A stretch of DNA of 64,000 nt, from the IMG/VR virus record IMGVR_UViG_3300050343_000110; one strand, written 5' to 3'. This document shows, one piece after another, positions 2,705 to 43,736 of this stretch. The notes beneath the pieces were generated by a model that saw only the letters and a program-made list of their open reading frames with translations, was not told the origin of the DNA and did no database searches. The translations under genes were made by a program, and so were the position numbers. The stretch's first letter is position 1, and every line of letters begins with the position of its first letter. Origin of the DNA: a virus.

Positions 2705-4297
2705 ATGGCACTAACATTACAAATTAAAAGGTCTACTGGTAGTACCGCTCCATCGGCTCTTGCTGATGGTGAACTCGCCTATACCCACGGTAACGATGTA
2801 TTATATATTGGTGATGGGTCTACAGTAGAAGTTATCGGAGGTAAATCCTTTAACGATAAAATTGATCACACTGCTGGTACACTAACTGCTAGTTCTGCTG
2901 TCCTTGTTGATAGTAACAAGGCAGTTGATGAGATGTTTGTTGGTAATCATGCAACAACAGGTGGACAGATTAAACTCAATGAAGGTACTAACAACGGCAC
3001 ACACTTTGTTGGACTGAAAGCACCTAACGCACTTGGGGGTAACGTAACATTTACACTACCGACTGCTGATGGAAGTGCAAACGAATTTCTTAAAACAAAC
3101 GGTTCTGGTGCATTGTCATTTGGTGCAATATCAAGTTCATTTACACTTGCAGCCGATAGTGGTTCTAACGATACATTTAATACCAGTGAGACACTTACAT
3201 TTACTGGTGGAACAGGTATTGACACAACAGTATCAAACAATGAAATTTCATATGCAATTGATTCAACTGTCGCAACCCTAGCAGGTTCACAGACATTAAC
3301 AAACAAGACACTAACTGCTCCAGTAGTTGAAGGTGGTACGATTGGTAATTCAACAGCAGTAACAATCGCAAAAATTGATAATATTACTATTGATGCAAAC
3401 ACAATTTCAACAACTAACTCAAATGGTAACTTGGTTATCTCACCAAACGGAACAGGTTCAATCACAGTTCCTTCAGGTTATGAGGGAAGAGCTGGATTTG
3501 GTGATGACTCACTTGTAAACAAATCATATGTTGACGCAGTTGCAAACGGACTTGATGTTAAAGCATCTGTAAAAGTTGCAACCACAGCAAACCTTTCTGG
3601 TACATATAATAATGGTAACGGAACAATTACTGCTGGTTCAAACGGTGCAATCTCAGTTGACGGTGTAACTCTCTCAGTAAATGATAGAGTTCTTGTTAAA
3701 GACCAGACAACACAAACACAAAACGGTTTCTATAAAGTTACTACAACTGGTTCTGGTTCTGCTGCATTTGTTCTTACAAGAACACCAGATGCAGATGCAG
3801 CCTCTGAACTAACAGGTGGTGCATTTACATTTGTTGAAGAGGGTACTGCAAACGCAGACAACGGTTTTGTTCTGACTACAAACGGAACACCAACACTTGG
3901 AACAACTAACATTACCTTTGAACAATTCTCTGGAGCCGGACAAATTTCTGCTGGCGCTGGTTTGACTAAAACTGGTAACACAATTGATGTTGTAGGAACA
4001 GCAGACAAGATTACTGTATCTGCAAACGCTCTTACAATCGCATCAACTTATGTTGGCCAGTCATCTATTACTACTTTAGGCACTATCTCAACTGGTGTTT
4101 GGAATGGCACTGCAATTGCAGCGACTTCTGGTGGTACTGGACTTTCCAGTATAGCAAAAGGTTCTGTACTTGTGGCGAACTCTGCCAATACTTTGTCTGC
4201 ACTTGATGGTGGCGGTTCTAATGATGGAGTGTTGTTTTATACATCATCTTCTGATACACTTTCTTTTGCAACGAGTATTGACGGCGGCACATTCTAA
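2705..4297 (+). CDS. tail fibre-like protein
   Basis: N-terminal QIKRS...LADGELAY adaptor; LDVKASVKVATTANL domain; Gly/Thr/Ser-rich; ends in DGGTF. Confidence 0.7.
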   Translation: MALTLQIKRSTGSTAPSALADGELAYTHGNDVLYIGDGSTVEVIGGKSFNDKIDHTAGTLTASSAVLVDSNKAVDEMFVGNHATTGGQIKLNEGTNNGTHFVGLKAPNALGGNVTFTLPTADGSANEFLKTNGSGALSFGAISSSFTLAADSGSNDTFNTSETLTFTGGTGIDTTVSNNEISYAIDSTVATLAGSQTLTNKTLTAPVVEGGTIGNSTAVTIAKIDNITIDANTISTTNSNGNLVISPNGTGSITVPSGYEGRAGFGDDSLVNKSYVDAVANGLDVKASVKVATTANLSGTYNNGNGTITAGSNGAISVDGVTLSVNDRVLVKDQTTQTQNGFYKVTTTGSGSAAFVLTRTPDADAASELTGGAFTFVEEGTANADNGFVLTTNGTPTLGTTNITFEQFSGAGQISAGAGLTKTGNTIDVVGTADKITVSANALTIASTYVGQSSITTLGTISTGVWNGTAIAATSGGTGLSSIAKGSVLVANSANTLSALDGGGSNDGVLFYTSSSDTLSFATSIDGGTF

Positions 4298-4321
4298 TAA
4301 GTAGTCATGTAGGAGTGCCTC

Positions 4322-5965
4322 ATGGCTGTGGATTTAAAACTTAAAAGGTCGCATACCCACTCTACAATACCATCTACTTCGGATTTGGTAGAGGGTGAGT
4401 TTGCAGTCAATACATATGACGGTAAAATGTATATGCGTGATGGCAGTAACAATGTTGTTACTGTTGGAAACCATTATGCAACTGATTATGAATCTTCCAC
4501 AAAAACTTTCTATATAACTGTTGCATCCTCAACTTCTGCTCACGTTCATAACGGTAGTGGTTCTAGTAGTAAGTATAAAGTTAATGGTGTCTTTTCACCC
4601 TATCTAAAACTTATCCCTGGCATCACATACAAGTTTGATCAAGCAGATAGTAGTAATGCTAACCACCCATTTAGATTCTATTTGGATGAAGGCAAAGGCA
4701 CTGCATATACAACAGGCGTAACAACTAATGGAACTGCTGGTTCTGCTGGTGCATACACACAGATTGTTGTAACACACTCAACCCCTGCTGTTCTTCATTA
4801 TCAATGTTCTGCACACTCTCTTATGGGATGGGCAGCGTTTGTGCATACGGATAACCTAACTGCATTTGATACTGGTGACTTGACAGAAGGTTCTAATCTT
4901 TACTTCACTAACGCACGAGCAGACGCACGAGTAAATGCAGTATTACCAAACACTGATAGTCTTACAGAAGGCTCTAGTAACCTTTATTACACTGATGCAA
5001 GAGCGCAAGCAGTTTCTATCAACAATGTCGTAGAAGATACTTCGCCTCAACTTGGAGGCGCTCTTGACTTAAACTCACAAAATATTACTGGTACTGGTAA
5101 CATTTCTACCACTGGTGATTTAACACTTACATCCACTGATACTGGTTCAAGTGCAGAACCCTATAATTAGTTTGGTTCGTGATAGTTCAAGTCCTGCTGA
5201 TGCAGACTATCTTGGTCAAATTAAATTTTTAGGTGACGATGACGGTGGTAGTCAACACGTTTATGCAAAGATAACTGGTAAAATTGCTGATGCATCTGCT
5301 GGCACAGAAGATGGTATTATTGAAATTGCAAATGTTAAGGCTGGTACAAATACTATTACTGCAAGATTTACGTCATCTCTTCTAAAGTTGTTGAACGGTA
5401 CAGGGTTGACGGTTGATGGTAATACGACACTATCTGGTACACTAAACGGACATACAATTCCTGGCGGTTCTGGTACACTTGCATTGACAAGTGATATTGG
5501 GGTTCTACAGACTTATCTGCCGATTCAACTCCTCAACTTGGAGGCGACTTGGATGTAGTCACACACGGAATTGTTTCCACCTCAAATAGAAACATTGCAA
5601 TTACACCAAACGGTTCTGGTAAAGTTATCATTGATGGACTATCACATCCTGTCGCAGACGGTAACGCAGGCCAAGTTTTAAAGACAGATGGTTCTGGTAA
5701 TCTTGCATTTGCTTCAGTTGGTTCACTTGCTGGTTCTGGTATTCAAAATGTATCAGATGATAGTTCTCCTCAACTTGGAGGCAACTTAGATGTTGTGACA
5801 CATAGTATTATATCAACATCCAATAGAGATATCAACCTTACACCGAATGGTTCTGGTAAAGTTGTTGTGAGTTCAACTGGTATTGAGTTTAGTGATGGTT
5901 CAGTTCAGACTGCCGCTGGTGCCGATCAAGGATTTGCAATCGCCATGGGCATTGCACTTGGGTAG
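4322..5965 (+). CDS. fibre-like virion protein with a cupredoxin-like motif and internal repeats (split into 3 ORFs by indels)
   Basis: KLKRS...LVEGEFAVN adaptor; DxxPQLGGxLD repeats continue across ORFs 4322-5170, 5151-5558 and 5549-5965; ends with AIAMGIALG. Confidence 0.65.
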
Positions 5966-5973
5966 TATAAATA
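5966..5973 (+). promoter_or_regulatory. T4-type late promoter TATAAATA
   Basis: Exact consensus upstream of gp13. Confidence 0.75.
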
Positions 5974-5992
5974 CTATAAAAGGATAAATTAA

Positions 5993-6809
5993 ATGGCAAT
6001 ACCTACAACAAGAACAGATTTTAAAGAGTGGTGTCTCAGGAGTCTAGGTAAGCCTGTAATCGAAATTAATGTCGATCCCAGATCAGGTAGAAGATAGAAT
6101 AGACGAAGCTTTACAATACTTTGCACAATATCACTATGATGGTGTAGAAAGAGTATACCTAAAATACCAAATTACACAGGCAGACATCACTCGTTCTAGA
6201 AGTGATAATAGTCTTGCACAGGTTACGGATGTTGATTCGTCAACAACAGCAGTCTGGAAAGAACAGAAGAACTATATTCCTGTTCCAAGTTCTGTTATGT
6301 CTATTGTCAAGGTATTCCCTATGACAGACAAAGCATCACTGAATATGTTTGATGTTAGATATCAGTTGAGACTAAATGACTTATATGATTTTAGTTCAAC
6401 TTCTTTGATACATTACGAAATGACAATGCAACACTTAGATTTCTTGGATCATATTCTTATCGGTGAGACTGCAATACGTCACAACCAACATCAAAACAGA
6501 TTGTATCTGGATGCTGATTTTCAAACAGACTTTGTTGATGGAGATTACATCATCATTGAATGTTATCGTGCAATTGATCCTGCTACATATTCTGATGTTT
6601 ACAACGATATCTTTTTGAAGAAGTACACGACACAACTTATCAAGAAACAATGGGGTGCAAACCTTTCCAAGTTCCAAGGTATTCAGATGTTGGGTGGAGT
6701 TGCTCTTAATGGTGAACAGATTTACACGCAGGCTCAAGAAGAGATTGATAAATTGGAAGAACAGATTCAACTTGCATACGAACTGCCTCCAATGCATATG
6801 ATAGGGTAA
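5993..6809 (+). CDS. gp13: neck protein gp13 (indel near 6078)
   Basis: MAIPTTRTDFKEWCLRSLGKPVIEINVD then QVEDRIDEALQYF; KQWGANLSKF. Confidence 0.92.
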
Positions 6810-6812
6810 GTT

Positions 6813-7571
6813 ATGCCAACAAACGTATATTTTGATACAGGTACGAAACCAGAACAAGCGCTCTATGAAGATTTGATGATAGAGCAATTGCGTATCTACG
6901 GGCAGGATGTTTATTACATTCCTCGTAAGATGGCTGGTACTGATACTATTTGGCAAGAAGATATTAGTTCTTCTTTTGAATCTTCATATCTTATTGAAAT
7001 GTACATGGAGAACTTAGATGGGTATGAGGGTGAAAAAGAACTCATGTCTAAGTTTGGTTTAGATATACAAGACGATGCAACATTCATTGTTGCAAGAAGA
7101 AGGTGGGAACAATTTGTTTCGATAGATAATAATGTAATTGTTTCATCACGACCGAATGAGGGAGACTTGGTTTATTTTCCAAAAGGAAACAAACTATTTG
7201 AAATCACATTTGTAGACCATGATGATCCATTCTATCAGGTACAGAATCTACCTACATATAAGCTCAAATGCAAAACTTTTGAATATGCATCTGAGGTTAT
7301 CGACACAGGTATTGCAGAAATTGATGCCATTGATGCTGACAATTCTTTGGATATGATGCAACACCAAATTACTTTGGAAACCGCTACTGGTACTGGTTCA
7401 CTAATTTTAGAGAATATAGTAGAGAGTGCTGCGGCGTCCTATATAATACTAGAAACTTATAATATCGCACTGATTGATGAGAATTCACAAAATGATGACT
7501 TTGAACTTGCAGATGACAATATATTAGACTTCACTGAATCTAATCCATTCGGTGATGCTGGGATGAAATAA
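6813..7571 (+). CDS. gp14: neck protein gp14
   Basis: GQDVYYIPR, SKFGL, RPNEGDLVYFP; synteny. Confidence 0.92.
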   Translation: MPTNVYFDTGTKPEQALYEDLMIEQLRIYGQDVYYIPRKMAGTDTIWQEDISSSFESSYLIEMYMENLDGYEGEKELMSKFGLDIQDDATFIVARRRWEQFVSIDNNVIVSSRPNEGDLVYFPKGNKLFEITFVDHDDPFYQVQNLPTYKLKCKTFEYASEVIDTGIAEIDAIDADNSLDMMQHQITLETATGTGSLILENIVESAAASYIILETYNIALIDENSQNDDFELADDNILDFTESNPFGDAGMK

Positions 7572-7573
7572 CT

Positions 7574-8395
7574 ATGATTGGACAATATTTTTATAATCAA
7601 TCCACACGAAATGTTGTGGTAGCATTTGGTACTCTTTTCAACAATATTCAGTTGACAAAGAAAGATGCGAGCGGCGCTACTATTCAGGCAATGAAAGTTC
7701 CTCTTGCGTATGGGCCTAAACAAAAGTGGTTGGCAAGACTGACTGAAGACCCCAACCTTGCAAAAAAGGTTGCAGTAACTTTACCTCGTATTGGTTTTGA
7801 GATTTCTGGTATAACATATGATGCGACTAGAAAACAAAACAAAGTAATTAAGGTGAAGAAGGTTGCAGACGGAGCTGACAACGAACAAGTGAAATCAGGA
7901 TTTATGCCTGTTCCATATAACGTGGAGTTTGAACTGTTTATCATGTCAAAGAGTTCAGATGATGCACTACAAATTGTAGAACAGATTCTTCCATACTTTC
8001 AACCAGAGTACACAGTAACTTTAAGAGAGAGCCCAGACTTGGATATCATTCGTGATGTTCCAATCGTACTCAATAGTATCTCATATGAAGATGACTATGA
8101 GGGTGACTTTACAAGTAGAAGGAGTGTTATCTACACTTTGTCTTTTACTGCAAAGTACTACTTGTACGGCCCAGTAACATCGCAAAATGTTATTCGTACT
8201 GTACAGGTTGACCAGTATGCGAATATGCCTGTCAATGCACCTTCAAGAGAACAAAGATATACTGTTACACCGAATCCATCTAATTCTACAGCAACAGAGT
8301 TTGACCCTGATGATGATAACTTTGGATTTAATGAAACATCATCTTTCTTTGAAGATGCGAAAACTTATGACCCTAAGACGGACACAGACGTATAA
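7574..8395 (+). CDS. gp15: tail sheath stabiliser/terminator gp15
   Basis: FGTLFNNI, KVPLAYGPKQK, QIVEQILPYFQP. Confidence 0.93.
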   Translation: MIGQYFYNQSTRNVVVAFGTLFNNIQLTKKDASGATIQAMKVPLAYGPKQKWLARLTEDPNLAKKVAVTLPRIGFEISGITYDATRKQNKVIKVKKVADGADNEQVKSGFMPVPYNVEFELFIMSKSSDDALQIVEQILPYFQPEYTVTLRESPDLDIIRDVPIVLNSISYEDDYEGDFTSRRSVIYTLSFTAKYYLYGPVTSQNVIRTVQVDQYANMPVNAPSREQRYTVTPNPSNSTATEFDPDDDNFGFNETSSFFEDAKTYDPKTDTDV

Positions 8396-36415: not shown

Positions 36416-37768
36416 TTGACACGCTCGTTTACAGATTTTATCACAGAAGAAAAGCAACTAGAAAACTACAAAGTAGTTATTCTTACAGTTGAGGTGGGTG
36501 ATAAATCTAAGACTGCAATCAAGTTTGAAAAAGAGGCAAAGAAGATGGGTATGGAAGTTCTTTTATCAGACTTCAAAACAACATCCCTGACCTTTAATAA
36601 TGGTAAGTATACTCTAAACAACAAAGACAAAAGTATGGACATCAGTTCCAAAGATACTGTTGTGTTTGTTAGAGGAACACCAACCAGAGATAGTCATCTA
36701 GACTTGATTTCAGAACTAGAAAGAATTGGTATTACTTGTATTAACAACAGAACTACTATCAGTATTTGTGCTGATAAGTATCGTAGTTATGTGAGACTAA
36801 AAGATTTCAGATTAGACCAACCCAAAAGTGTTCTTGTTCCTACAGAAGATGATATTGATTCTGCATTAGAAGAGCTTGATACCAAGTTTCCTATCATCCT
36901 CAAAACTCTTAGGGGTGCAGGCGGTGTTGGTGTTCTATTTGTTGAATCGAAACGTGCATTAGATTCTCTCGTACAATTAATTTATAAACAAGACCCAGAA
37001 ACAGATATTCTCATTCAAGAATATATCAAAACAGATGGTGACATTCGTGTTATTATTGTTGGTGATAATATTGTTGGTACAATGAAACGAGAAGTTGTTG
37101 AAGGAGATTTTAGAAGTAACTATACACAGGGTGGTGGGGTAAAATCTTACGACTTATCAGAAGAAGAAATTCGTCAATGTCTAATTGCTGCAAAGGCGGT
37201 TGATGGTGATTTTGTTGCAGTGGACTTTATTCCATACAAAGGTAAACCATACTTTTTGGAAGTAAACAGTTCGCCTGGCACAGAAGGTATTGAAGAAGCA
37301 AACTCTGGTTTGAACATTGCAAAAGAAGTTCTAGAACACTACAGGGATGTAAACAATAGATTTACTTCTCCTATCAGATGTGGTTTTCACGAGATGGTAA
37401 ACATAAAGCCATTTGGTGAAATCGAAACAAAGTTTGATACAGGGAATAGTGCATACTCAGTATTGCACGCTACTGACTTAAAAACTAGTGGTAGCAACAT
37501 CACGTTTACTACAGTAGGTGGTAAAACACATACTGCTAAACTAGAAAAAGAATATAAAGCAAGAACAGGGGGTGGAGTTGATGAACGCCCTATTGTTAAG
37601 TTAGAAGTCGAATTCATGGGCCATACACACGAACTGATGTTTGGGCTTGATGATAGAAATAAAAGAGGAACAGAAGTTCTTCTAAATAGATTTGCCATGA
37701 AAGAAATGAACGTCATGGTAGACCCTCAGAAGAAGTTGATTATTACTACAAAGAAAGGCGAAAAATAA
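36416..37768 (+). CDS. RimK-family ATP-grasp ligase fused to a retropepsin-like (RimB-type) aspartic protease
   Basis: DKY, KTLRGAGGVGV, IQEYI, DIRV, FRSNYTQGG, EVNSSPG; C-terminal KFDTGN. Confidence 0.85.
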   Translation: MTRSFTDFITEEKQLENYKVVILTVEVGDKSKTAIKFEKEAKKMGMEVLLSDFKTTSLTFNNGKYTLNNKDKSMDISSKDTVVFVRGTPTRDSHLDLISELERIGITCINNRTTISICADKYRSYVRLKDFRLDQPKSVLVPTEDDIDSALEELDTKFPIILKTLRGAGGVGVLFVESKRALDSLVQLIYKQDPETDILIQEYIKTDGDIRVIIVGDNIVGTMKREVVEGDFRSNYTQGGGVKSYDLSEEEIRQCLIAAKAVDGDFVAVDFIPYKGKPYFLEVNSSPGTEGIEEANSGLNIAKEVLEHYRDVNNRFTSPIRCGFHEMVNIKPFGEIETKFDTGNSAYSVLHATDLKTSGSNITFTTVGGKTHTAKLEKEYKARTGGGVDERPIVKLEVEFMGHTHELMFGLDDRNKRGTEVLLNRFAMKEMNVMVDPQKKLIITTKKGEK

Positions 37769-38020: not shown

Positions 38021-40539
38021 ATGAAATTTTACACACACGTTGCCCAATGGGGCAATCAACTACTTGTTCGTGCAGTAGAGAATGGTGTTCGTTCTAACTT
38101 CAAGGTTAAGTACGAACCCACTCTCTATGTGCCTGTTCAGAAAGAGACTGGCTGGACTACCCTAGAGGGTAAGAATGTCAGTCCTATGAACTTCCTCTCT
38201 ATTAAAGAGGCGAAGGAGTTTGTTGAACAGTATCAAAGTCAGCCCCATCTTGTCTATGGTATGACTCAATTCCCCTACACCTACATCGCCGAAAAGTATT
38301 CTAAACAGATTCAGTTTGACAGTTCACAAATGCGTATTGTCACGATTGATATTGAGGTAGAGTGTGAGAATGGTTTCCCTAACGCCGACAAGGCTCTAGA
38401 ACCTATGTTGGCTATCACCATCAAGAACCATGATACAGGACGTATCAAGGTTTGGGGTTTGCACGACTATCACAATGACAGAGAAGATGTTCAATACATC
38501 AAGTGTCAGACTGAACGTGAACTTCTGGCTCAGTTCCTTGCATGGTGGGAAAGTGACTATCCAGACGTAATCACTGGTTGGAATACAGAGTTCTTTGATA
38601 TTCCCTACATCTGCAACCGTATCAAATCGGTGATGGGTGAAGAGGCTATGAAACGTCTGTCGCCTTGGGGTATTGTAAACTCTCGCATGGTGAATTCTGG
38701 TTATGGACGTAAAGACCAAGTGTATGATATTGTGGGTGTTGTTGAGGTTGACTATCTTCAACTATATCGTAAGTTTACTTATTCTGCACAGGAATCTTAT
38801 CGTCTTGACCATATCGCCTTTGTGGAACTTGGTGAACGCAAAGATGAGAATCCTTATGAGACTTTTCGTGATTGGTATACGAAAGACTATCAGTCTTTCC
38901 TAGACTACAACATCCAAGACGTTGAACTGGTTGATAGGCTTGACGATAAGATGAAACTTATCGACCCTTATTCTGACTATGACGTATGAGGCCAAAGTAA
39001 ATATCTCTGACTCGTTTACGTCTGTTAAGTATTGGGATGTTCTCATTTACAATCATCTTCTCAAGAGAAAGATTGTCATCCCTCAAAAGACTTCCCACAA
39101 GTCCAAGGGTGAAAAGTATGTGGGTGCATATGTGAAAGAACCACAGGTTGGACAACACAAATGGGTTATGTCTTTTGACTTGAACTCATTGTATCCACAC
39201 CTTATCATGCAGTACAATATTTCGCCAGAAACACTATTGCCCGAAAAACGGTTGCCAGTTGATGTTGACCATCTTCTCGACAACAAACCTCTTCCTAAAC
39301 TTGAAGGTGCAACATTCACACCTAATGGTGCAGTCTTTCATAAACGTCACCAAGGGTTTCTCCCTGAGATGATGCAGTCGATGTATAATGACACGTACTA
39401 TCTACAAGAAGAAGATGTTGCAGGCAAAACAACAATATGAAGATACGAAGGATGCTAAATATCTAAAAGATGTTTCAAGGTACAACAACATTCAGATGGC
39501 TCGCAAGATTTCTCTAAACTCTGCCTATGGTGCAATTGGTAACGAATGGTTTCGTTATTATGATTTGCGTATTGCAGAAGGTATTACTACCTCTGGCCAG
39601 TTCTCTATTCGGTGGATTGAAAAGTCTCTGAATATGTATCTCAACAAACTGTTGAAAACTGAAGGAGAAGATTATGTCATTGCGTCTGATACGGATTCAG
39701 TATACATTACTTTTGACAAATTGGTTAATACTGTGCTTAAAGAACGAGAAGGAGAGTCGGAAGATTCATATCGTGGGCGGGCTGTTGATTTCCTTGACAC
39801 AGTGGCTCAAGAGAAGATTGAACCTTTTATTGATAAGTCTTATCAAGCTCTTGCTTCGTATGTAAATGCATATGAACAAAAGATGCAGATGGCTCGTGAG
39901 GTGATTGCCGACAAGGGTATCTGGACTGCAAAGAAAAGATACATTCTCAACGCATGGGATGTGGAAGGTGTTCGTTATCAAGAACCTCAACTCAAGATTA
40001 TGGGTATCGAGGCTGTCAAGAGTTCGACTCCTGCTCCTTGTCGTGACAAGATTAAGGAGTGTTTGAAGATTATTATGTCTGGTACAGAGAAAGATGTAAA
40101 CAACTTCATTCAAGAGTTTCGTGAAGAGTTTTTGCAACTGTCACCAGAAGAGATTGGATTCCCTCGCTCTGTGAATGGTATTCAGAAGTGGAGTGATAGT
40201 GCAAGTATCTTCAAGAAGGGAACACCTATGCATATCAAGGGCGTTATCCTTTACAATCACTTTGTCCGTCAACAAAAGTTGACTAACAAGTATCCACTAA
40301 TCCAAGAGGGTGAGAAAATCAAGTTCCTCAATATGCGTACTCCTAATCGTATGCAGTCTAACGTCATATCTTTTATGACTAAATTACCAAAAGAACTTGA
40401 CATTCACTCACATTTGGACTATGATATACAATTCGAGAAGGCTTTTATTGAGCCTCTCACTTTTATTATGAATCAGATTGGATGGAACATTGACCGTTCC
40501 TATGGTACACAAATGACTTTGGAGGACTTTTTTACATGA
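38021..40539 (+). CDS. gp43: family B DNA polymerase gp43 (indels near 38966 and 39393)
   Basis: Exo DIEVE, SFDLNSLYPH, KISLNSAYG, DTDS, KKRY. Confidence 0.97.
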
Positions 40540-41675
40540 GATATAAACCATACAACCTAGAAGATGTAGTAAATGCATCTAATGAAAACAAGTTCAATGT
40601 AATCTCTACCTTTGCTGGTGGGGGTGGTTCGTCCACTGGTTATCGTCTGGCTGGTGGTAAAATACTTTGTGTAAATGAATTTGTAGAAGAGGCCCAGAAC
40701 ACTTATAGAGAAAACTATCCAGACACACCGATTTTGCCTGGCGACATTAAAGAACTATCTGGTAAAGACTTCTTGGATGTTGTTGGATTGAAAGAAGGTG
40801 AACTTGATATTCTAGATGGTTCTCCACCATGCAGTGCCTTCTCAGTCGCTGGTAAACTATCACATTCTACTGATGGTAAACACTCAGACGGTTGGGGCCA
40901 GACTAAGAATTATTCAGATGGTAAGATGGTAGAAAATATTGAGGACTTGTTCTTTGAGTTTCTACGAGTTGCAGATGATATCAGACCTAAAGTTATTGTT
41001 GCAGAGAATGTGAAGGGGTTGACTATCGGTGAGGCCAAACAATACTTTAATAAAATTAATAATACATTTGAAGATATTGGATATGATGTTGTTGCAAAGG
41101 TATTAGATAGTCGTTACTTTGGTGTATCACAAACTAGAACTCGTGTTATCTTTATTGGTTTGAGAAACGATATTACAGAGAAGGCTGGACTAAACTTTAT
41201 GACTATCAATAGTGTGTTTCCAGAACAAAGTGTAGATGTCATTCCACTAAAGGATGCACTTGTCGGACTAGAATATGATGCAGAGGAAGTTGACTATCTA
41301 ACTAAGAAGTTTCTTAATACTGCATACTGGAAAGATACTGGTAGTAATATGGAGATTGACCCACCAAAAGTTTTGACAGGTATGGACTATCATCCTAAAG
41401 GACACCACTTCAATTTGAAACGTGTATCACAGTATGCACCAGCCCCAACACTAACTGCAATGGGTAGTAATGATACAACTGCTGGTGCGTTTCACTGGGC
41501 CGAACCCAGAAAACTAACTATTGGCGAACTGAAAAGAATACAATCGTTACCAGACGATTTCAAACTTACTGGTAAGTGGAATCAGAAATCAGAACGTATC
41601 GGTAGAATGGTGCCTCCTCTGATGATGAAGGCTATCGCAGATTCAATTTATAATAAAGTACTAAAGGAGATATAA
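40536..41675 (+). CDS. C5-cytosine DNA methyltransferase homologue, predicted carboxymethyltransferase
   Basis: Motif I FAGGGG, IV GSPPC, VI ENV, VIII QTRTR; motif X reads IGRMVPP instead of IGN(A/S)VPP. Confidence 0.85.
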   Translation: MRYKPYNLEDVVNASNENKFNVISTFAGGGGSSTGYRLAGGKILCVNEFVEEAQNTYRENYPDTPILPGDIKELSGKDFLDVVGLKEGELDILDGSPPCSAFSVAGKLSHSTDGKHSDGWGQTKNYSDGKMVENIEDLFFEFLRVADDIRPKVIVAENVKGLTIGEAKQYFNKINNTFEDIGYDVVAKVLDSRYFGVSQTRTRVIFIGLRNDITEKAGLNFMTINSVFPEQSVDVIPLKDALVGLEYDAEEVDYLTKKFLNTAYWKDTGSNMEIDPPKVLTGMDYHPKGHHFNLKRVSQYAPAPTLTAMGSNDTTAGAFHWAEPRKLTIGELKRIQSLPDDFKLTGKWNQKSERIGRMVPPLMMKAIADSIYNKVLKEI

Positions 41676-42376
41676 TGGCTGACTTTACTTTTGCACATAG
41701 AGAGGAAGGTTTTGATGAACATATTGAACATTCTATTCGTGGTTACAGTAATTTACTTGATGATGTGGTTCAGTACTCACGTTACTTTGTAGAAGATGAT
41801 ACTAATGTTGTAGACATTGGTTGTTCTACAGGAAAGTTCACTCAAATGATGTTAGAGGCTAATCAAGATTTTTGTTGTGATGCACATTACATTGGTGTTG
41901 AGATTGCAGAGGGGTTTCATAATGACTTACTCAAAAGACAAGAAAACATTGACAAATTGCACCCTTGGGCCTCAACTGAATTCTTATTTGAAGATGTTCG
42001 TGACTACGAGTTTGAAAACTGTTCTTTGATTACATCTATCTTCACTTTACAATTCATGCCACCTAGACATAGACAAGAAGTAATAAGACGAATCTATGAA
42101 GGATTAAATACTGGCGGTGCATTTATATTTGGAGAGAAAACAGTATGTCAAGACCCTAGACTACAGAATATGATGACATTTAATTATTATGACTACAAGA
42201 GAAAGAACTTTGATACAGAAGATATCATGGATAAAGAAAAGACTTTACGTCATATGATGAAACCAAACACTTGGGATGAGATTGTAAACAATCTTATTGA
42301 GGCTGGGTTTTGGGGTGATAAGATACAGCCATTTTGGAGAAACCACACATTCGTAGGAGCGATTGCAATAAAATGA
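41675..42376 (+). CDS. cmoA: carboxy-S-adenosylmethionine synthase CmoA-like
   Basis: FDEHIEHSIRGYS, DIGCSTG, FTLQF, LNTGGAFIFGEK, DYKRKNFDTEDIMDK match CmoA motifs. Confidence 0.8.
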   Translation: MADFTFAHREEGFDEHIEHSIRGYSNLLDDVVQYSRYFVEDDTNVVDIGCSTGKFTQMMLEANQDFCCDAHYIGVEIAEGFHNDLLKRQENIDKLHPWASTEFLFEDVRDYEFENCSLITSIFTLQFMPPRHRQEVIRRIYEGLNTGGAFIFGEKTVCQDPRLQNMMTFNYYDYKRKNFDTEDIMDKEKTLRHMMKPNTWDEIVNNLIEAGFWGDKIQPFWRNHTFVGAIAIK

Positions 42377-42669
42377 AACCTAACACAATAGTCACACTAG
42401 TAATGACAACAGGAGCCGAAATTATTGGACGGCTCGTAAAAGATGAATTTTCAACAATAGTAATTTACAAGCCTCGCCTAGTACAGGCGACTCAGCAGGG
42501 CGTGGGGCTTGTGAATGGAATAAGCATGACAGGTAAAGAAATCAATGAAGATTTTGAGTTTCCTAAAACATCAGTCGCATACATGGTAGAAACTATGAAA
42601 GAACTTGCAGATGGCTGGACTACACAAACTTCTGGTATTGCAGTTCCAACTCAAGGAATTATAAAGTAA
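42373..42669 (+). CDS. conserved hypothetical protein (Sm-like)
   Basis: IVTLVMTTGAEIIGRL...TSGIAVP. Confidence 0.55.
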   Translation: MKPNTIVTLVMTTGAEIIGRLVKDEFSTIVIYKPRLVQATQQGVGLVNGISMTGKEINEDFEFPKTSVAYMVETMKELADGWTTQTSGIAVPTQGIIK

Positions 42670-43736
42670 TGGTTATCGAAGAAGATTTCAAACTTGACTT
42701 TTCTAATGTATTGATTCGTCCAAAGCGTTCAACACTAAAATCTAGAAAAGAAGTGGATTTATTCAGAACTACAATCTTTAGAAACAGTAAAGAGGAATAC
42801 ATTGGTGTTCCTATTATGGCTGCGAATATGGATGGAGTTGGTACGTTTGAAATCGCAGATGCACTTGCAAAACATAATGTATTTACTTGTTTGGTAAAAA
42901 CATATTCAGTGAATGAACTTGTCAGTTTCTTTGATTGTGAAGATGAGGATTTGAAATATGACAGAAGAGAAAATGTTGCAATGTCTATCGGTGTATCTGA
43001 TGAAGATTTGCAAAAGTTTCGTAATGTTTATGAGTTGACTGATGGGGCTATTAAATACCTATGCGTAGATGTTGCAAATGGATATACTGAAATGTTCAGT
43101 AACTTTATTTATCAATTGCGTTTGAATCATTCAGAACTTGTTATCATAGCAGGTAATGTAGTTACTGGTGATATGACACAGGAGTTAATTCTAAATGGAG
43201 CAGATATTGTTAAGTGTGGGATTGGCCCTGGCAGTGTGTGTACTACTCGTATACAGACAGGAGTCGGATATCCACAACTCTCATCTGTTATTGAATGTGC
43301 TGATGCCGCTCATGGTCTTGGAGGCCATATTATTGCTGATGGTGGTTGTGTATCGTCTGGTGACGTAGCAAAAGCATTTGGTGGTGGAGCAGACTTTGTT
43401 ATGCTTGGTGGTATGTTGTCTGGCCACGATGAAGGTGGTGGGGAATATATATTAGAGGATGATAATCCAGAACCTATAGGAGTTCGATTCTATGGGATGA
43501 GTTCGGAGATAGCAAATGAAAAACACTTTGGTGGACTTAAAGACTACCGAGCTTCTGAAGGAAAAGAAGTCGTTGTTCCCTACAGAGGAAGCATTCATAA
43601 TACTATGCAAACTATTCTTGGAGGCATCAGATCGTCCTGTACTTATGTTGGAGCAAGACGAATAAAAGACTTGACAAAATGCACAACTTTTGTTAAAGTA
43701 TATAATACTCATAACACAATCTTTGGAGATAAATGA
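42669..43736 (+). CDS. guaC: GMP reductase (auxiliary metabolic gene)
   Basis: VLIRPKRSTLKSRKEV, AANMDGVG, CVDVANGY, GIGPGSVCTTR, YRASEGK. Confidence 0.93.
   Translation: MVIEEDFKLDFSNVLIRPKRSTLKSRKEVDLFRTTIFRNSKEEYIGVPIMAANMDGVGTFEIADALAKHNVFTCLVKTYSVNELVSFFDCEDEDLKYDRRENVAMSIGVSDEDLQKFRNVYELTDGAIKYLCVDVANGYTEMFSNFIYQLRLNHSELVIIAGNVVTGDMTQELILNGADIVKCGIGPGSVCTTRIQTGVGYPQLSSVIECADAAHGLGGHIIADGGCVSSGDVAKAFGGGADFVMLGGMLSGHDEGGGEYILEDDNPEPIGVRFYGMSSEIANEKHFGGLKDYRASEGKEVVVPYRGSIHNTMQTILGGIRSSCTYVGARRIKDLTKCTTFVKVYNTHNTIFGDK

Follow-up and report, generated by a model that had tools for sequence, protein, structure and literature searches.

A DNA modification pathway that depends on carboxy-S-adenosylmethionine (Cx-SAM) has been described in the Synechococcus phage S-B43 (Yang et al., Nat Commun, Dec 2025; PMC12783734). 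In this system, SpCmoA makes Cx-SAM from S-adenosylmethionine (SAM) and prephenate with a kcat of 2.33 per s, 10-fold faster than the Escherichia coli enzyme. SpCmoX uses Cx-SAM only and writes 5-carboxymethylcytosine (5cxmC) at GC sites. Its Arg350 takes the place of Asn304 of HhaI and contacts the carboxymethyl/carboxylate group of Cx-SAM, and the R350N variant accepts neither SAM nor Cx-SAM. CmoY joins glycine to the carboxyl of 5cxmC, and S-B43 DNA holds the glycine amide only, without 5cxmC. This chemistry is backed by liquid chromatography-mass spectrometry and by the crystal structure 8YF3 of SpCmoX, and DNA modified by the S-B43 system resists HhaI (PMC12783734). Here, we describe a putative two-gene counterpart, cmoX-cmoA, in a stretch of 64,000 nucleotides (nt) of the IMG/VR virus record IMGVR_UViG_3300050343_000110, hereafter the window. 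In our judgement, this pair is quite likely a minimal CmoX/CmoA cassette that writes 5cxmC, which is probably left bare and likely serves against restriction. The two genes, with lengths in amino acids (aa), and the residues central to this reading are as follows.

40536..41675, plus strand: cmoX, putative DNA cytosine C5-carboxymethyltransferase orthologue, 379 aa (P0001)
41675..42376, plus strand: cmoA, putative carboxy-SAM synthase orthologue, 233 aa (P0002)
40821..40832, plus strand: SPPC motif of CmoX, Ser96-Pro97-Pro98-Cys99, with the predicted catalytic Cys nucleophile
41604..41606, plus strand: Arg357 codon AGA of CmoX, in motif X IGRMVPP

CmoX matches the C5 DNA methylase family of Pfam (PF00145, E 3e-57, residues 20-372) and TIGR00675 of NCBIfam (E 2e-47), and the ENV and QxRxR motifs are readable in its translation. 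Its far best structure match is SpCmoX itself (8YF3, E 1e-150, full length), to which it is 62% identical in a global alignment that superimposes S96-P97-P98-C99 on S95-P96-P97-C98 of SpCmoX. The cofactor adenine/ribose contacts are kept as well, F26, E48, F49 and D70 corresponding to SpCmoX F25, E47, F48 and D69. The initial annotation had suggested that Arg357 faces the substituent of the cofactor, and this residue indeed falls on SpCmoX Arg350, the Cx-SAM carboxylate contact, in both the HMMER and the global alignments; in the alignment with M.HaeIII it falls on the Asn of IGNAVP. At 62% identity, the SpCmoX crystal structure is sufficient to place Arg357. The assignment of the window methyltransferase (MTase) as a DNA cytosine C5-carboxymethyltransferase orthologue is supported by these similarities. 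Its donor would be Cx-SAM, not SAM, and its target may be GC, as for the S-B43 enzyme.

As for CmoA, it is 60.6% identical to SpCmoA over 231 residues and 60.2% identical to the homologue of the Synechococcus phage S-CRM01. All its matches in the PDB are CmoA-family proteins (4GEK and 4IWN of E. coli, and YecO of Haemophilus influenzae, 1IM8; E 5e-26). Its best NCBIfam family is TIGR00740 (E 9e-35), and it also matches phrog_4752 (E 2e-64), a family called 'tRNA methyltransferase' in PHROGs. The SAM-binding Rossmann residues Y24, D47, G49, S51, E76 (for D89), D107 and F127 align with the contacts of the E. coli enzyme, EcCmoA. The second gene of the pair therefore appears to encode a carboxy-SAM synthase orthologue, with the corresponding activity predicted from homology.

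The two genes are tightly knit with each other and with the family B DNA polymerase (PolB) gene that precedes them. The overlaps and the Arg codon reported in the initial annotation are all found in the sequence. TGA 40537-40539, which ends the PolB open reading frame (ORF) 39388-40539, sits in the ATGA that opens cmoX at 40536, and in the TAATG at 41673 the last A of the cmoX stop codon TAA (41673-41675) is also the first letter of the cmoA ATG at 41675. Residue 357 is encoded by AGA in the context ERIGRMVPP. A further ATGA overlap, at 42373, couples cmoA to the next gene (98 aa, 42373-42669).

The initial annotation had proposed that a motif X Arg together with an adjacent CmoA denotes Cx-SAM-dependent formation of 5cxmC. 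This is what has been shown for the S-B43 orthologues (PMC12783734). S-B43 and the window phage are both T4-like myoviruses of the Kyanoviridae, and both systems have a C5-MTase fold, the SPPC motif, a Cx-SAM-binding Arg, an adjacent phage CmoA and the cofactor contacts named above. However, the gene order is cmoA-cmoY-cmoX in S-B43 and cmoX-cmoA in the window, which has no CmoY, so that the predicted product is 5cxmC instead of the glycine amide. Furthermore, the window has a backbone like that of phage Melnitz and a probable heterotroph host, with the cassette joined onto the 3' end of PolB. Synechococcus phage S-CRM01 (g149/g148) resembles the window more closely in having two overlapping genes, the IGRMVPP motif and no adjacent CmoY, with 60% identity for each of the two proteins. 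There, in contrast, the order is cmoA-cmoX, and the pair does not follow PolB but lies between a gp62-like clamp-loader gene and regA. S-CRM01 infects a freshwater cyanobacterium, and its two genes are annotated as tRNA methyltransferase and DNA methyltransferase.

Two more distant systems share single elements with the window. As cited in PMC12783734, the M.MpeI N374K variant of the Kohli laboratory has a basic residue in place of the motif X Asn, which makes this C5-MTase use Cx-SAM and produce 5cxmC. It is an engineered Lys variant, CpG-specific and supplied by the host CmoA, whereas in the window the Arg occurs naturally and a CmoA is encoded next to the enzyme. The E. coli CmoA/CmoB pathway for tRNA cmo5U (4GEK, 4IWN) has in common with the window a CmoA that makes Cx-SAM from SAM and prephenate, with 30% identity and most SAM contacts retained. 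It differs in that the window lacks CmoB, has DNA cytosine as the predicted acceptor, and has a Glu for Arg199.

With CmoX as the query, 259 loci that encode close relatives were identified in IMG/VR, and the best 80 of these were analysed. As for the co-occurrence of IGR-type MTases and cmoA, which the initial annotation had proposed to survey, GSPPC and the Arg within R-x-G-R-M-V-P-P are present in all 80, and where a contig extends far enough, cmoA nearly always follows cmoX at a distance of at most ~50 nt. The pairing of CmoX and CmoA is not due to chance. A CmoY homologue is encoded in 35 of the 80 loci, directly upstream of cmoX in 31 and 2.2-3 kb downstream in four. The arrangement of the window, PolB-cmoX-cmoA without CmoY, is found in 17, including all the nearest relatives, and in one of the contigs (L004) both CmoX and CmoA are 100% identical to those of the window. 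Conversely, four loci (L050, L052, L076 and L079) have an Arg-type cmoX without cmoA, in the order PolB-cmoX-UvsX; these phages would have to draw on host Cx-SAM. In L029, L064 and L072, CmoX is 77-80% identical to that of the window where PolB is only 44-46% identical, and the corresponding values for S-CRM01 are 60% and 40-49%. Such stronger conservation of the cassette than of PolB across lineages fits its horizontal exchange. A published survey of IMG/VR v4 based on SPPC and R350 criteria reported 5,615 CmoX candidates, 4,257 CmoA and 2,251 ligases (PMC12783734). The protein family of the window is already counted there, and this very sequence probably is too.

In the mechanism that we propose, CmoA would convert SAM and host prephenate into Cx-SAM. 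CmoX would flip the target cytosine out of double-stranded phage DNA, Cys99 would attack C6, and the carboxymethyl group of Cx-SAM would be moved to C5, generating 5cxmC after replication. Arg357 would pair with the carboxylate of Cx-SAM, so that Cx-SAM would be chosen over SAM. As no late TATAAATA promoter is present between 33118 and 47104, the cmoX/cmoA pair sits in the replication block, and translational coupling to the DNA polymerase in this block might ensure that the mark is written during genome copying. The modified base would most likely shield phage DNA against host restriction. What the analysis shows is sequence similarity, retention of the catalytic and cofactor-binding residues, overlapping genes, conserved co-occurrence and gene context; enzyme activity, target motif, expression along with the replication genes and protective role are inferred for the window phage. 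The initial annotation had envisaged two purposes for the mark: the restriction shield stands as the most likely one, while a handle for further modification is less apt, as CmoY is not found in the 64 kb.

The nature of the end product depends on whether a ligase acts after CmoX. A tblastn search of the 64 kb with S-B43 CmoY gave a best E of 3.8, and the SGGxDS PP-loop (SGGVDS in S-B43 CmoY) is absent from all six frames of the window. Without a CmoY-type amide ligase in the 64 kb, bare 5cxmC is the probable final product in this phage. Alternatively, 5cxmC might be only an intermediate, turned into an amide by a ligase that lies outside the window or escapes recognition. The glycine amide of S-B43 DNA, the presence of CmoY in 35 of the 80 relatives and the genes of 300-550 aa without Pfam match that adjoin the cassette in relatives all speak for this possibility, and the window itself offers a candidate 2.8 kb upstream, a RimK-family ATP-grasp carboxylate-amine ligase (36416-37768). 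Nevertheless, CmoY, where present, is always within ~3 kb of CmoX, and the 20 kb to the left and to the right of CmoX contain nothing similar to it here. When the larger ORFs nearby were scanned with Pfam, the RimK-family enzyme was the sole amide ligase. Across Melnitz and many contigs of relatives, the gene of this enzyme is conserved, with identities of 29-81%. As a substitute for CmoY it is unlikely and was rejected as the main reading, since it belongs to the backbone: it is present both in Melnitz, where CmoA is missing, and in the CmoY-bearing L021 and L061. We therefore regard an amidated end product as unlikely. The RimK-family protein, an alpha-L-glutamate ligase encoded between regA and PolB, has a C-terminal retropepsin-like/Zn_protease-like fusion.

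The remaining explanations concern the purpose of CmoA. It is very unlikely that CmoA mainly drains host SAM into Cx-SAM and blunts SAM-dependent defences, with the DNA mark as a secondary effect, although such a role would be compatible with the writing of bare 5cxmC. The idea was raised as an open question by the authors of PMC12783734, and the rapid turnover of the phage CmoA agrees with it. However, the tight coupling of CmoA to CmoX points to cofactor supply, and four of the 80 relatives keep CmoX without CmoA, in a set that, having been collected with CmoX, cannot reveal CmoA alone. We give even less credence to two separate roles, namely an ordinary SAM-dependent MTase making 5-methylcytosine (5mC) and an auxiliary CmoA that boosts cmo5U in host tRNA. 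This would accord with the classical role of CmoA in tRNA modification and with the name of its PHROGs family. Yet an Arg stands where ordinary C5-MTases need an Asn, SpCmoX, 62% identical, refuses SAM (PMC12783734), and cmoX and cmoA overlap and occur together across dozens of contigs. Moreover, CmoB was not found in the window, the best tblastn E with E. coli CmoB being 0.5.

Several observations weigh against the reading of the locus as a cassette for bare 5cxmC. The window covers perhaps half of the phage genome, and a ligase might be encoded elsewhere. In the recognition region of CmoX, which extends from motif VIII to motif IX, identity to SpCmoX falls to just 44%, and therefore the target motif may differ. 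CmoA remains below the curated equivalog cut-off of TIGR00740 (120.4 bits against 193.3). Likewise, its score with NF011995 is 94 for a cut-off of 285, CmoA nevertheless being by far the best family. Finally, Glu188 occupies the position of Arg199 in EcCmoA, a residue reported to hold the carboxylate by a salt bridge (PMC3663124). The sub-threshold NCBIfam score is probably explained by this difference of the phage clade at the Arg199 position. The catalytically active SpCmoA likewise carries a Glu here, so the Arg salt bridge is not a defining trait of the phage clade. The difference does not count against CmoA function. Around Glu188, K187, K189 and R192 are conserved in the phage CmoA clade. 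It is tempting to speculate that Lys187, Lys189 and Arg192 may take over the carboxylate-binding role of Arg199 in this clade.

A last reservation stems from the polymerase gene, which is listed here with the putative expression signals of the cassette.

38021..40539, plus strand: family B DNA polymerase (PolB, gp43), phrog_262, in three ORFs (38021-38989, 38979-39440 and 39388-40539)
40397..40425, plus strand: sigma-70-like TTGACA-17-TATGAT in the 3' end of PolB, 110 nt ahead of cmoX, a weak candidate internal promoter
41664..41669, plus strand: strong Shine-Dalgarno AAGGAG within the 3' end of cmoX, 5 nt ahead of the cmoA ATG, as read from the sequence

The gene directly upstream of cmoX had been named gp43 in the initial annotation. 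It does belong to the DNA polymerase, but ORF 39388-40539 is just the C-terminal third of PolB. The three ORFs cover positions 7-332, 337-476 and 475-851 of phrog_262, whereas PolB is a single ORF of 841-843 aa in L004, L006, L007, L011 and Melnitz. Relative to L004, which is 99.6% identical, the window has two 1-nt insertions, a C at 38965 (CCC instead of CC) and an A at 39393, and these account for the split into three ORFs. Most simply, the breaks are assembly errors or mark a defective variant, and they make the sequence quality or the viability of this genome uncertain. Both cmoX and cmoA are intact despite them.

The window comes from a T4-type myophage that resembles Methylophilales phage Melnitz. 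In megablast searches, three segments of the window matched Melnitz with ~80% identity, 28-45% cover and conserved synteny, while cyanophages matched only at short conserved pieces. At the protein level, identity to Melnitz reaches 84-85% for PolB, 92% for UvsX and 75% for MazG. The data support the view that the window phage is a close relative of Melnitz and not a cyanophage, which is consistent with the apparently non-cyanobacterial myovirus of the initial annotation, and its host is probably a heterotroph.

In Melnitz (L001, MZ577097), the slot that separates PolB from the 99 aa/MazG genes (4010-8090) harbours a C5-MTase, a Tet_JBP dioxygenase, a P-loop nucleotide kinase and an unknown protein of 427 aa. 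In the C5-MTase, the Asn/Arg site of motif X is a Leu (IGLMVAP); this Leu variant and the 427 aa protein are apparently uncharacterised. MTase/TET (5mYOX) cassettes of this type, known from DNA hypermodification in phages (Burke et al., PNAS 2021; PMC8256090), share with the window a post-replicative C5-cytosine modification led by a C5-MTase, and in Melnitz the same PolB-MazG slot. They differ from it in proceeding via 5mC and 5-hydroxymethylcytosine, and Melnitz has no CmoA. We see about equal grounds for accepting and for doubting a broader proposal for the Melnitz-like lineage. According to it, bare 5cxmC would be the final genomic base, a state unseen in a native phage so far, and the PolB-MazG slot would swap cytosine-C5 chemistries (CmoX/CmoA, CmoX/CmoA/CmoY with unknown genes, or MTase/TET/kinase) among related marine myophages.

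The cassettes of some relatives contain additional genes. Genes of 300-550 aa without Pfam match lie between PolB and CmoY/CmoX or beside CmoY in L021 (5414-6445), L026 (5323-6231), L062 (4166-5269), L027 (968-2317), L046 (1099-2187), L066 (7548-9191), L033 (11869-13395) and L064 (4123-5523). A second AsnB-like gene is found in the cassette of L040, and an NAD-dependent epimerase gene in that of L044. Such extra genes may add further hypermodification steps.

Perfect TTGACA-17-TATAAT promoters are found directly ahead of the modification cassette in Melnitz (L001, 3947-4009) and in L029 (about 2930-2970), which suggests early expression of these cassettes by the host RNA polymerase. In the window, the PolB gene instead runs straight into the cassette. 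The candidate at 40397..40425 matches the consensus at 11 of 12 positions, but the promoter scan overall did not exceed chance. We did not retain this site as an internal promoter, as its conservation among relatives is inseparable from coding constraint.

The genes around the cassette follow the order gp44, regA, the RimK-family ligase gene with its retropepsin-like fusion, PolB, cmoX, cmoA, the 98 aa gene, GMP reductase, MazG, UvsX and a DnaB-like helicase. The 98 aa gene was ruled out as a third member of the cassette, given that its Melnitz homologue precedes MazG without any CmoA. The GMP reductase gene (42669-43736), between this backbone gene and MazG, scores as a regular guaC equivalog, with 523 bits for a cut-off of 397, and its inclusion in the cassette is unsupported, as it occurs in the nearest relatives only. 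It is absent from Melnitz and from L007. Across the whole window, the observed-to-expected ratio is 0.93 for GpC, which is uninformative, and 0.59 for CpG, which is depleted. The window has a G+C content of 38.4% and zero tRNA genes.

As the chemistry of these systems, their decisive Arg and their broad occurrence in phage metagenomes are already published, our finding mainly confirms and places them. What is specific to the window, namely a Melnitz-like, non-cyanophage backbone, a minimal layout devoid of CmoY and the comparison of the slot contents, is of modest added value. Nevertheless, the locus extends the new 5cxmC modification, as predicted from the conserved genes, from cultured cyanophages to abundant marine myophages whose nearest isolate infects OM43 methylotrophs. 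A compact two-gene tool could also be conceived on this basis. In the window phage, 5cxmC with its negative charge may be a naturally occurring finished base and not a handle. If this is true, the phage would be useful for asking how bare 5cxmC affects restriction, transcription and packaging. The comparison with Melnitz suggests that close relatives exchange entire cassettes for cytosine modification at a single site of the genome.

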